DNA of 64,000 nt from Eledone cirrhosa (Eukaryota): positions 20,212,001 to 20,276,000 of the forward strand of contig OZ024747.1 of the NCBI GenBank assembly GCA_964016885.1, read 5' to 3'. A program made the translations under genes and the position numbers. A model generated the notes under the pieces. The model saw only the letters and a program-made list of their open reading frames with translations, was not told the origin of the DNA and made no database searches. Of this stretch, positions 13,324 to 54,405 are shown piece after piece (the stretch's first letter is position 1; each line of letters opens with the position of its first letter).

Positions 13324-13378
13324 ACTGCCTGAAGAGGTCACAGCCAAAGATGGCTGTCACTGAAATATATATAGCAGT
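13324..13378 (+). ncRNA. Minimal type-I hammerhead ribozyme (C.C stem-II subtype), best-preserved copy
   Basis: actgc-CTGAAGA-ggtcacagcca aaga tggctgtcact-GAAA-tatata-TA-gcagt. Perfect 5-bp stem I, 11-position stem II with one C.C, palindromic stem III ATATATAT, AATAAA at 13379-13384. Confidence 0.85.
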
Positions 13379-13518
13379 AATAAACGAAGCTAAATTTTAA
13401 TCATTTGACTTTTATTTAACTTTATTTTATATATATATATATATATATATATATATATATATATATATATATATATATATATGTATATATATATATATAT
13501 ATTTTTAAATATATATAA

Positions 13519-13705
13519 GTGTGGTAAGGAACCAGATGGACAATATCGCACCAGAGTACTCAATACTTAGGGTAGTAGAGTGGGTAATTGGAAAACGTTT
13601 AACCCCGACGGCAGACCTCAAGCCGTTTCGACGGCTATTAGTGCATCCAGAAATAGCCGTCGAAACGGCTTGAGCTCAGCCGTCGGGATTAAACATTTTC
13701 CCATA
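13519..13705 (-). mobile_element. Fold-back PLE-like element (family C)
   Basis: Starts gtgtggtaaggaaccagatggac; hairpin ccgacggc..ctcaagccgtttcgacggctatt / aatagccgtcgaaacggcttgagctcagccgtcgg. (TA)n on both sides. Confidence 0.75.
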
Positions 13706-13818
13706 TATATATATATCTACTATATACTAGAGACTAAATAAAGATGGTGTAGACATACGATGCAACGGGAGGAAACAATAGCACCACTGCGATGTTGCAG
13801 ATGTGCAACGAAAGAAAT

Positions 13819-13915
13819 TTGATAGACTATATATATGTGTTTGTGTCTATATTGTACCTGTATTTTTGATAGACTATATATATGTGTTTGTGTCTATATT
13901 GTACCTGTATTTTTG
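13819..13915. repeat. Tandem duplication of about 47 bp
   Basis: ttgatagactatatatatgtgtttgtgtctatattgtacctgtattt present twice. Confidence 0.9.
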
Positions 13916-49887: not shown

Positions 49888-51820
49888 AAAATAAAATAAA
49901 ACAAAATAAAATATTGCAGGGGTATATTTCAGGGGGACAGTCTCTGTGTGATATTGTTCATCTTGTCATTAAGCCCCTTGTCCTTTCTGCTCAAGAAATG
50001 TGAGGGATACATCATTGGCTCACAGGAGGACAGAAATACAAACCTAACCCATAACTTCTTTGTGGACGATCTGAAACTCTATGCCAAGAACATGGATGGG
50101 ATGAAGAAAAATCTTGACCCGGTTACACCGTTCTCAAAGCATATAGGAATGGAGTTTGGCCAAGATAAATGCTCATACATGACTGTAAAGCGGGGAAAAA
50201 CAACAACCCAATCTAGCAACATTGTCATCAATGGTCTAACTGTTTCACCGATATCTGATGAGGACTGCTACAGATACCTGGGGATAGATGAGAACATATC
50301 CTATAATGGTATCTGTAATAAAGAACGCGAAACCAGGGAATACTACACCCAATTAAGAAAGATATGGTCATCGGAACTCTCTGCGCAAAACAAAACAGTG
50401 GCTCACAATGTGTTTGCTGTGCCTGTCATAACACCAACGTTTGGAAACTCAATTGGACGATAGACGAAATCCGAGCAGTTGATGTTGGAACTCGAAAAAT
50501 ACTGAACAACGCCGGAAACTTCCACATCAACAGTGACATAGGCCGCCTTTACTTGAAACGTAAGCAGGGAGACATCAGTCCAGACAACATTTGAATGTCG
50601 CATCATATCTCTCGGACAACATCTACGAACCTCGAAGTCTATCTGCATGAAACAGATAAGATCATGAGAGTTGGGAAGGAACTCTTTGAGAGATATTCCT
50701 GTGTGATAATCAAAAACTCACACCCAGGGATATCGCTCAGCAGTATCGCAGTGAATCCACGGATGAAAAACTGCATGCCTATCAGCAAATAATCATGCAT
50801 GGATATGTTGCCAGGAAGCTCCAGAGTGAGAGTAATATAGATAAGGAAAGTAGTCTATCTTGGACCAACAACCGCTATATTGGCTCCCACTTTGAAGGAT
50901 ACGCTTTTGCAATCCAAGAACAGGAGATTAGCAGGAAATACCTGATTCACAAAAGAGATAGGTGCAGGCAAAACACCTAGATATGATAACAAGTGCAGAC
51001 TCTGCAGAACTAGCATCGAGGATATCACCCATCTCATCAGCAGCTGCCCAAAGATGTCATCGCGGTACTATCTACCTATGAGGCATGATGTAGTGGCCAA
51101 AACACTGTACAATGCAGTTCGTAAAAAGGATAGCCCCGATAATAAACACATTAAAAGCTACAACAATGTCGAAGACATCCATGTACATAATATGAAAGAG
51201 TACTGGTGGAATGTTCCAGTAAAAACCCCAATAAAATGCAGGCATAACAGACCAGATATTATGATATGGGACAGGGAGAAGAAAACATGCACATTAGTGG
51301 AAATTAGCTGCCCAGCAGATGCCAATATAATATCAAAGATTAGTGAAAAGGAGAATATTTATGCAGAACTGATGAGAAATCTGCAGATACTCCACCCTGA
51401 TTACACCTTCAGATTTATGCCTGTGATTATTGGGGCTCTGGGATATGTTAGTAACTGCCTCAATACAAATCTTGAGAAGCTAGGCTTCACAGGAACAGAA
51501 AGAACACAACTAGTTAGGAAATTACAAGTACAATCCATTAATGCAACAGTAAAAATATGTAAAACATTCCAAAACTTTTGCATCTACTAACTGCATATAC
51601 ACATGTACAGATACAAAGCATATACACATGCACACATACAACTCAAAACATACACATCCACACATACAATAACATCCATATCTACACATGCATGCAGACA
51701 TGCATACATATCTACCTAGTTGATGTCGTGTAACTTCCAATGAGAGAGTCTTGTGTCTATGTTAGAAACCGACTCTCTCTCTATTGGGAAAACTTTGTGA
51801 AATTATAAAACCAGAAGAAC
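49888..51820 (+). mobile_element. 5'-truncated R4/Dong-clade retrotransposon, close relative of 20729-22782
   Basis: ORF pieces 49948-50463 (FVDDLKLY, YRYLG), 50795-50980 and 51054-51590 (RHD, RPD, VEISCP). (CATA)n on both sides. Confidence 0.92.
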
Positions 51821-54032
51821 ATACATACATACATGTTTCTTATACCATTCTGCCCGTCAGTCTGATTCATTTTCATTCAGAAATAACTATAGCGCTCCAA
51901 CATGAGAGGATATTCTCGCCAGTAGTCATAGCCTCAATCTATAGAAATATAGAAAGCTACAATGAGAGAATACCAAATTCCCAGAATAGAACAGAAGATA
52001 ACCTACGGAAATCTTCCAAGCACAGAACTTTGCACAGGATATTATAATACAGAAATTATAAACTTCATTGTATATATGAAGGTATTTATGCACTCATACA
52101 CACAAACACCCATACATGCGCTTGCCTTCATATATATATCAGTCAATCACTATAAATAATATTTGAGAAAATCGTGTGAAATATCCATGAAGCTCGGAAT
52201 CGTAGTGGTGGTTACTTTCAGATGAGGTCACAAGAATCGATGAAATGCTGGCATAAGAATAATCTGTTAAAATGTTCTGTTACGGGAGTTGAAATTGCTT
52301 TCACTTCACAGTTCATTCCTTTCAGAGATAAGGTTTCTAATTGAAATACACTAGCTTTATCTGCATTACGTTAACTCTTAGATTTCATATATCTACACAT
52401 TAGATGTCCAGATACCTGATCTAGCTTTCCAGTTCATCTTTATCTCAAGGCTAGAAACATTTTAACATACTTTCTCTTATTTGGGGACTTATCGACACCC
52501 AAATTACTGGATATCCCCAGAGCCAGTATTTTCCATCCATTCATGCTATCTCTTCTTTGCTGTGTAGCATCTTTTACTTTATAATAGGGACTACCTCCAG
52601 CGGAGAGAGGTGTCAGGCCCTTCTAAATTGGAAGTTTCTGGGTTTGTGAATTCAAAAGCAGGATAAATTTATTCAGAGTAATTGGGATGTTTTATAAATG
52701 AAATATATTTAATTTCTTTTTATTTATTTATCAATCTACGTAATATTCAAATTGTCACTTTCCTTCTACATGTACTCAAGTTTTAGGGGACTGTTTTGAT
52801 GCTTTGCCTGTCGTAAAAACACTGAAATAATTAGTGTGGATGAGCTTAGCATTCCATTGCTCATAGAGGTGGGACTAATATCTGTGGTGGAATTATATAT
52901 CGATATGGCCAGATCCCTAATTCCAGGTGTCTATAGTGATAGTCATGTTCACTAAATACAGGTCGCTACGCTGACCACAATACGTTGGAGCTGAAAATGA
53001 AGCGGGATATAGTGAGAGTCAATATCCATTCCTTTTTAAAGCCCTTCAGAAACTCCTCCTGTGTCTATGGGAAAAGCCTGATAGACTTACTCTTTGTCAT
53101 TGGACTATCACACGGGAGACACCATTTTCAGAAGCTCTACCTCTCCTTATTACAGATTAGATGATCCGGAGACGAATAAGGATGGGGTCGCTGCACCTGT
53201 CTCCGAAAGAAATAAAATACCGAGATATTATGATTTATCGGTAAATTACGTTTTCAAGCTTGTAACATCGAAACGTAATTTATTAGTCAAGCTGTGCCGC
53301 TCACAACTAGCTTTCTGTCATTATTGGAAATTCATTATACTGAAGTATCAGTAGAGGTTCGTCAGCCTCCTTGGCTATGCTAACACATTAGACTCTGAAT
53401 CACACACGGCAACAATACGAATACCTTGGGATATCTAAATTAGATGTATATAAACATATATATTTCATTTTATATGAAGGGATGTAATATGAAAATAGAG
53501 AAAGGTATTGCGGGCATGAGTATCCAGTTTTCTTCTTGATGTGGTATACCGCGATTGCAAGGACATTCGTTTGTAGATTACGACATTCAATGGTAGAAAT
53601 GTATTAAGATGTGTATGTGTATTAAAACAAATATAAACATAGATTCTGTTATAATATATTCATTCAAAAGAACCATCATTCTTATCCAACAACTTGCGAA
53701 CAAATTCGGTGTAATATTTACCTAGCATCGTAGAATATCAATTCTAGTTGTCAACTAAATATATGCTGCTTGAGATGGGAATGGACATCAAAACAAATAT
53801 GGTTGACCTACCAGAACAAACTATGTAAAGCAAAACAACATTTAGCTTAAATTTCATATTTATAGGTTAGGATCTACGTCTCAAAAGAAAAAAGTTGAAC
53901 GTGGTATTATCAACCCATATATTACTGAATATCGAAAAATTATGATTAAATTTCTCATTCTACCTTCCAAAATGTCGTAAATATTCCAGTCAAATCTAGT
54001 ATATATAAATATAGAAATATATATATATATAT

Positions 54033-54232
54033 AAGGAAGGAAATGTGGTAAGGAACCAGGTGGACCAAAGTACTTAATACTTAGGGTAGTAGAGTGGGTA
54101 ATAGGAACGAGTAGGACCCCGACGGCTGAGCTTAAGCCGTTTCGACGGATAATTCTGGACGCAGAAGTCTGAGTCCAGAATTAGCCGTCGAAACGCCTTG
54201 AGCTCAGCCGTCGGGGTCCTACTCGTTCCTAT
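54033..54232 (-). mobile_element. Fold-back PLE-like element (family C)
   Basis: aaggaaggaaatgtggtaaggaacc...; hairpin of about 65-bp arms ending ctcgttccta-(TA)n. Confidence 0.8.
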
Positions 54233-54349
54233 ATATATATATATATTCCTGCTGACAACATCAAAGTATTCCTAACAAGCTCATATGTCCCAAGGCTCTG
54301 ATACCATCAACACTATACACACAGAGCTGGCATATCTAAGAACTGACTA

Positions 54350-54405
54350 ACTGCCTGATGGGGTCATAGCAATTCAATGGCTATCATCGAAATATATATA
54401 GAAGT
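54350..54405 (+). ncRNA. Hammerhead motif (C.C stem-II subtype), core-mutated
   Basis: actgc-CTGATGG-ggtcatagcaa ttcaa tggctatcatc-GAAA-tatata-TA-gaagt; related to the 13324 copy; AATAAA follows. Confidence 0.7.

Follow-up and report, generated by a model that had tools for sequence, protein, structure and literature searches.

Hammerheads of Penelope-like elements and the Eledone window

The closest described relatives of the ribozymes considered here are the hammerheads of Hydra-clade Penelope-like retrotransposons (PLEs; Craig et al. 2021, PMC8557442, File S2), which share with them a type I fold, a position in the 3′ pseudo-long terminal repeat (pLTR), a weak or mismatched first stem II pair that is often U.U, an 8-10-nt palindrome as stem III, (TA)n targets and the protein clade. 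The minimal PLE hammerheads (Cervera and de la Pena 2014, PMC4209133) have in common with them the core, a palindromic stem III, predicted cleavage as dimers, a longer-than-usual stem II and AU-rich flanks. In Frangieh 2024 (PMC11167929), cleavage by a PLE hammerhead from an anole requires the PLE protein, PLE ends are internal reverse transcriptase (RT) starts, the template is uncleaved and catalytic mutants still insert; the inferred protein-binding region, the first 172 nt of the open reading frame (ORF), starts at stem II and reaches far beyond it. Here we analyzed a window of 64,000 nt from Eledone cirrhosa (GCA_964016885.1, contig OZ024747.1, positions 20,212,001 to 20,276,000, forward strand), in which five hammerheads with an unpaired C in stem II belong to a real and abundant structural variant of the known PLE ribozyme, apparently undescribed.

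The five motifs share a hammerhead core, AUA at the predicted cut and a stem II, 26-31 nt long, in which C faces C at the fourth position from the core (position 4). All carry, as an earlier note on this DNA had claimed, an 8-nt palindrome as stem III, ATATATAT in four and ATGATCAT in one. The five motifs and every C.C coordinate given in that note were borne out on re-inspection:

13324..13378, plus strand: hammerhead, family F8; stem I 13324-13328/13374-13378, core 13329-13335, stem II 13336-13361 with C13339.C13358, stem III 13365-13372, predicted cut after A13373
13379..13384, plus strand: AATAAA of the F8 hammerhead
13305..13428, plus strand: short 5′-truncated PLE copy, ends approximate, from blastn to family members; stops about 55 nt past the cut site, within (TA)n
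16067..16127, plus strand: hammerhead, family F4; C16085.C16104, predicted cut after A16119, AATAAA at 16124-16129
15905..16176, plus strand: PLE copy, ends approximate; an inverted tail (about 15905-16004, minus strand), then the 3′ part of the pLTR and a (TA)n end
28554..28621, plus strand: hammerhead, family F1; core 28562-28568, stem II 28569-28599 with C28572.C28596, predicted cut after A28611
28616..28621, plus strand: AATAAA of the F1 hammerhead, paired inside the extended stem I in the predicted fold
28419..28800, plus strand: PLE copy, ends approximate, between (TA)n runs; has the long (tail) end, with the final ~50 nt of the tail duplicated
33979..34036, plus strand: hammerhead, family F7; stem II 33990-34020 with C33993.C34017, stem III ATGATCAT, predicted cut after A34032, AATAAA at 34037-34042
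33875..34090, plus strand: short PLE copy, family F7, ends approximate
54350..54405, plus strand: hammerhead, family F9; stem II 54362-54388 with C54365.C54385, core A9>G, predicted cut after A54400, AATAAA at 54407-54412
54230..54451, plus strand: short PLE copy, family F9, ends approximate, between (TA)n runs

The core, CUGANGA with GAAA and NUH, is intact in four of these copies. Motif 54350, with its A9>G change and one disrupted stem I pair, and motif 16067, with T.T at stem II pair 2 and G.G at pair 5, are decayed, given these changes. The host insertions measure about 120-380 nt each and are mostly bordered by (TA)n.

Several features set the motifs apart from the published ones. In the 26 Hydra families of PMC8557442, File S2, stem II is fully paired over 3-8 bp and the triplet is GUH, whereas our motifs have a stem II of 19-58 nt whose position 4 is an unpaired C, and an AUA triplet; stem III also starts and ends with AU, unlike in those rows. 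The consensus of PMC4209133 has a bulged base between A9 and G10.1, a G10.1-C11.1 pair and an otherwise perfect stem II, while in our motifs a weak, symmetric N.Y first position replaces both bulge and pair, and position 4 is mismatched. The earlier note had allowed that the mismatch might already stand in published alignments; by eye, position-4 C.C occurs in none of the 56 rows shown in PMC4209133, one sea-urchin row having C.A at the fourth pair after the bulge, and in none of the 26 Hydra rows. The descriptor given in PMC4209133 (perfect stem II of 3-7 bp, 2-nt stem III) would miss the present motifs. Rfam returned no hammerhead match at E<=10 for two copies, and none was among the 150 listed of the 239 matches to the window. 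The PAc (Poseidon) hammerhead of PMC11167929 belongs to another clade, its ORF begins within the hammerhead, and a conserved mismatch is not among the features reported in the available part of that source. Our literature searches turned up no account of the mismatch, nor of a hexamer at the cut; the variant may be described in Lunse 2017 or Arkhipova 2017.

The unpaired C at position 4 of stem II

A hammerhead pattern that left position 4 unconditioned gave 112,411 matches in the 3.0-Gb genome and 478 in the reversed control, while a pattern requiring C..C, with a pyrimidine preceding GAAA, gave 78,783 and 7, respectively, showing that the motif is not due to chance. More than 100,000 hammerhead motifs, missed by two Rfam checks and by the published minimal descriptor, are thereby added; matches are often arranged as divergent inverted pairs. 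Searches with a shorter or longer stem II yielded 6,354 and 2,598 extra matches, some of them overlapping or spurious. The 5′ base at position 4 is C in 107,317 of the 112,411 matches (95.5%), and the 3′ partner of this C is C in 70%, U in 22% and G in 0.4% of matches. Another 5′ base is present in 5,094, the first 100 listed being scattered mutants of ordinary families or chance matches. The C..T pattern gave 24,818 matches, mostly from one lineage, and the C..A pattern, searched over a slightly wider length range, gave 3,718, of which about 59, 7 and 4 of the first 100 listed come from three separate subfamilies (counted by eye). Only 462 matches were obtained for C..G; the first 100 listed consist of C.C-family members mutated at a single site, chance matches and a tandem array that is unrelated. 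L312, at first sight a C-G family, was rejected because it is a deletion copy of a 41-nt C.C stem. The AUA triplet is near-invariant, as the earlier note had it, with AUC in 2 copies. The pattern matched viral contigs at 13 places, but a convincing stem II was never combined with a convincing stem I.

We grouped 276 motifs from sampled loci into 51 clusters, 14 of which cover at least two loci; the motif filter required at least 5 of 6 neighbouring positions to be paired, so that the pairing rate is built in and the variety of pairs is not, and the central motifs of the search for a non-C 5′ base were left out. In all 14 multi-locus clusters the 5′ base at position 4 is an unpaired C. The majority is C.C in 12 and C.U in 2, one C.U cluster being a 1:1 tie and one C.C cluster a mixture of C.C and C.A. 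Pairs 2, 3, 5, 6 and 7 each occur as 2-3 pair types, in agreement with the covariation claimed earlier. The first stem II pair is G-C in 2 of the 14 families and A-U, G.U, U.U or A.C in the others, and the U at +7, which resembles the canonical U1.7, is found in 11 and is conserved in some families only. The 5′ C is the only invariant base beyond the core and the stem III ends fixed by the search. The rule is hence a 5′ C that is unpaired, facing any base but G: of the "invariant C.C" of the earlier note, the unpaired 5′ C held, but its partner varies among C, U and A. A Watson-Crick family majority at position 4, which the earlier note had named as the observation to look for, occurs in 0 of 14 clusters, and this argues that the mismatch is under selection.

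Repair to C-G is predicted to stabilize stem II by 3-7 kcal/mol and founded no family among those seen. This gain would be expected if the mismatch were negative design, loosening stem II at its base so that the ribozyme stays slow on the template RNA, or interrupting a long duplex that double-strand-RNA enzymes would attack. The freedom of the partner to be any non-G base is in line with this explanation, as is the fact that copies carry sequence past the cut, pointing to uncleaved templates like those of PMC11167929. However, any mismatch would then serve, yet a 5′ C sits at the same register in 14/14 families, and families with nearly perfect 41-nt stems keep their mismatch at position 4 only. 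We thus regard negative design as quite unlikely. Another explanation holds that the hairpin acts on the complementary DNA (cDNA) strand, where a conserved G stands opposite G, A or T. G.G, G.A and G.T are better-tolerated mismatches in DNA. On the sense strand, however, G.U wobbles outnumber A.C by 9 to 1 among the 14 family majorities and by 52 to 11 among the 51 clusters, and the catalytic core lies on that strand too, making this the least probable of the explanations considered.

As outside controls we used 78 Hydra-type metagenome loci, 47 of which yielded 51 distinct sense-strand hammerheads, 3 of them bulge-type. Position 4 is paired in 46 of the 48 non-bulge hammerheads, and the triplet is GUH in 50/51. 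In an unconditioned scan of 310 sampled sequences, every C.C, C.U or C.A motif had an 8-nt, AU-ended palindromic stem III, while GUH-type families had a fully paired stem II; other hammerhead families of the same genome combine GUH or CUH triplets with a stem II that is short and paired throughout. Given the outside relatives, nearly all paired at position 4, and these fully paired same-genome families, the mismatch is a derived trait of one lineage. The endonucleases linked to C.C, C.U and C.A motifs fall into five lineages with about 34-52% identity between them (two fragments are only 77-81 aa long, and one non-overlapping pair was ignored), and form one group, with weak support (SH-aLRT, a likelihood-ratio branch support, of 83), in a quick tree built without named Hydra reference sequences. 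An endonuclease was sought for families F3, F4, F7, F10, F12, F13 and F15, and no linkage was found for these. Such a single group, together with relatives lacking the mismatch, means that one origin suffices, as it would if the mismatch were a neutral accident inherited from one ancestral element. In the same period, however, neighbouring pairs were swapped by double changes and the proteins diverged to <50% identity, and the 3′ partner changed several times while the 5′ C never did, in a C-poor genome; a neutral accident is therefore very unlikely.

Host elements, copy ends and the hexamer beside the cut

Judged from their sequence context, the motifs belong to the type I hammerheads and lie in the pLTRs, at the 3′ ends, of short Hydra-clade PLE copies. 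The assignment to PLE pLTRs in the earlier note was upheld by tandem and inverted pLTR copies, a tail, (TA)n targets and a PLE ORF, all of which were found. At locus L221, two tandem hammerheads lie 3,724 nt apart, with an AUG ~190 nt 3′ of the upstream cut site; inverted pairs and two 3′ ends also occur. The unit is about 3.7-3.9 kb long with a long 3′ untranslated region, compared with <3 kb for the published Hydra PLEs (PMC8557442). Its single ORF encodes an RT followed by a GIY-YIG endonuclease at the C terminus, with intact frames of 735-782 aa. The L221 protein shows RWR as a variant of RWK, and DKT, MGSSD, YRDD, CNCRDRSKC and YVGS; it has the CxCX5C linker and lacks CX2-5CxxC. Compared by eye with published Hydra proteins, these motifs match the definition of the clade in Craig et al. 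2021 (PMC8557442). Pfam gave no match for the ORF at E<=0.1, and the only two named protein relatives are both from Argonauta hians. A Naiad origin, raised by the (TA)n targets and by Craig's 'half-core' note, was rejected because the endonuclease is C-terminal.

The F7 unit, of 2,006 nt, has no internal PLE protein match and no stop-free frame >110 aa, and thus looks non-autonomous; it nevertheless keeps the unpaired C. As a hammerhead-bearing, ORF-less PLE derivative it recalls the non-LTR (long terminal repeat) retrozymes, at least as these are presented in the parts available of PMC7229834 and bioRxiv 10.64898/2026.07.22.740005, though F7 consists of dispersed, mostly truncated 2.0-kb units, whereas retrozymes form short tandem arrays (220-350 bp) with canonical hammerheads. 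One F7 unit (L370:5321-7326, G000:C291) contains a block of ~220 nt that is duplicated internally, together with GC-rich hairpins upstream of the hammerhead.

Stem III covaries as a palindrome among families (ATATATAT, ATGATCAT, ATGCGCAT and ATACGTAT). Its monomer hairpin is predicted at +3.6 kcal/mol and its self-duplex at -2.2 to -10.5 kcal/mol, so that by these energies the palindrome would be stable only as an intermolecular duplex, which fits the dimer cleavage proposed in PMC4209133. Folding does not itself show dimerization, since unconstrained minimum-energy folds yield the active dimer in 1/5 window copies only. The read cover of four contig runs was of DNA type only, plus one 36-nt piece in a presumed RNA run. 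At locus L259:5620-5720, a second hammerhead core starts 4 nt past the first cut site, in a head-to-tail micro-tandem that could form an intramolecular dimer. The L365:3433-4690 region holds further families of hammerhead-like motifs, with a stem II of 36-51 nt, a 9-nt stem III and GUA.

There are two fixed 3′ ends among the copies, about 50 and about 140 nt past the cut: most lie at 43-60 or 130-155 nt (~200 in F7), and the sequence then runs into (TA)n. The short end lies mostly 43-60 nt past the cut in 6/6 families measured, and 37-47 nt beyond the hexamer. Poly(A) addition usually takes place 10-30 nt past AAUAAA. Because the short end is beyond this range, the templates would be read-through, uncleaved RNAs. 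On this analysis the copy ends fit internal RT start sites, not poly(A) sites, and the coupling of self-cleavage to polyadenylation put forward in the earlier note is not needed. The PAc (Poseidon) element likewise has two 3′ ends, short and tail, downstream of its hammerhead, and an uncleaved template (PMC11167929).

The earlier note had treated the AATAAA beside the cut as part of the subtype. It is indeed present in 5/5 window motifs, where it starts 5-7 nt past the predicted cut. More generally, an A[AT]TAAA that starts between -1 and +21 relative to the cut is present in 39/50 cluster representatives, which are related so that the counts are not independent (shuffle mean 10.3, maximum 20), and in 26/49 outside relatives (shuffle mean 4.1, maximum 11), as against 1/50, 0/48 and 0/49 in control windows. 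Its distance from the cut varies over this whole range: in the C.U and F6 lineages it straddles the cut, while F8-type copies keep it at +6, +13, +14 or +21. In the outside Hydra PLEs (L122-L199), ATTAAA or AATAAA often straddles the cut or lies just past it, starting at the H17 base in 6/51. AAUAAA or AUUAAA also stands just past stem I in ~10 of the 56 rows of Fig. S3 of PMC4209133, counted by eye. With its variable position and sequence and its presence in outside relatives, the hexamer is not subtype-specific: it is, on these sequence comparisons, a general Hydra-PLE feature unlinked to the mismatch, and probably a poly(A) signal. Its place beside the cut in Hydra PLEs generally constitutes a second testable observation.

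Candidate roles of the unpaired C

The earlier note had suggested that the mismatch is a functional element, in contact with stem I, a dimer partner or a protein. Comparison lends good support to one functional, non-catalytic base, but a Watson-Crick tertiary contact is left without a conserved G partner: none is found within 20 nt upstream or 25 nt downstream, nor in stem I or the flanks. A partner that may be C, U or A is what one would expect if the C itself were read. We tentatively favour, with somewhat less than even confidence, the hypothesis that the element's own RT-endonuclease recognizes the C, in a ribozyme that is protein-assisted and forms dimers. Protein recognition is preferred because the partner is free, no RNA partner is evident and a non-autonomous family keeps the C, as well as because the RT-start distance is steady and one PLE hammerhead is known to need protein. 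Based on this model, the monomer would be weak, with a 2-bp stem III, and the two hammerheads of a tandem transcript would pair via the 8-nt palindrome; the RT-endonuclease would use the open C to bind stem II, assist folding or cleavage of the ribozyme, and begin reverse transcription at a set distance downstream. As for the AAUAAA next to the cut, which predicted folds often bury in stem I, it is likely the unit's ordinary poly(A) signal and separate from the mismatch.

Several points weigh against protein recognition. As position 4 is paired in nearly all of the Hydra relatives, the contact would be lineage-specific, and the proteins supposed to read the same base are <50% identical. The binding region of Frangieh 2024 (PMC11167929) far exceeds stem II, and insertion there survives catalytic mutation. 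Many loci were retrieved with patterns that fix C at position 4, a bias from which the unconditioned, C..G, non-C 5′ base and shorter- and longer-stem II searches are free. Families share one origin, so that about five deep lineages, not 14, count as independent tests. Lastly, an RNA-RNA contact accounts for the conservation equally well.

In such an RNA contact, the open C would touch stem I, the core or the partner ribozyme by a non-canonical or minor-groove interaction, replacing the loop II-stem I contact, which is out of reach for a long stem II. A canonical 4-bp stem II ends at position 4, where it approaches stem I. The co-occurrence of the mismatch with the 8-nt AU-ended palindrome and AUA/AUC in the 310-sequence scan, next to fully paired GUH families, also speaks for it; loop II cannot make the contact, since stem II length is free (19-58 nt). 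Against it stand the lack of a conserved G within the stretches given above, a stem I geometry that differs among families (continuous in F1, bulged in F7 and F8) and the shifting distance between hexamer and cut. We consider a tertiary contact rather unlikely, though the most probable of the rivals.

Protein recognition could also extend to a ribonucleoprotein switch, in which the exposed C lets the RT-endonuclease capture its own and non-autonomous RNA, license cleavage and set the RT start ~50 nt downstream, with stem I hiding the AAUAAA that straddles or follows the cut, such that each transcript is routed to mRNA, cleavage or template. We regard this wider scheme as improbable. The role of hammerheads in PLEs is at issue: on their own they are poor at cleaving, in one case the element's protein is needed, and insertion in vitro can do without cleavage. 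The natural C.C, C.U and C.A variants, with many intact ORFs, offer a one-base test between a protein-binding landmark and a tuned catalyst.

The window also holds other elements. A canonical minimal hammerhead core at 23394-23425 (plus strand), with GUC, a 4-nt palindrome and a stem II that is short and paired, has a broken stem I; it probably represents another PLE family, in a decayed copy. The minus strand carries two more hammerheads from other families, at ~54765-54810 and ~63760-63840, one with a short paired stem II and GUA, the other with a 51-nt stem II and a 10-nt palindrome. Two broken non-LTR retrotransposon copies (20958-22549, minus strand; 49900-51590, plus strand) show an RT and a cysteine motif, with a restriction-like endonuclease motif at the C terminus, and a broken L1/Tx1-like element (35945-39790, minus strand) retains ORF1, apurinic/apyrimidinic (APE) endonuclease and RT fragments. 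A GC-rich element with strong internal inverted repeats, resembling a miniature inverted-repeat transposable element or another non-autonomous repeat, recurs at ~13070-13220, 13510-13730, 16630-16950 and 54040-54240, and often adjoins or is interrupted by PLE copies.

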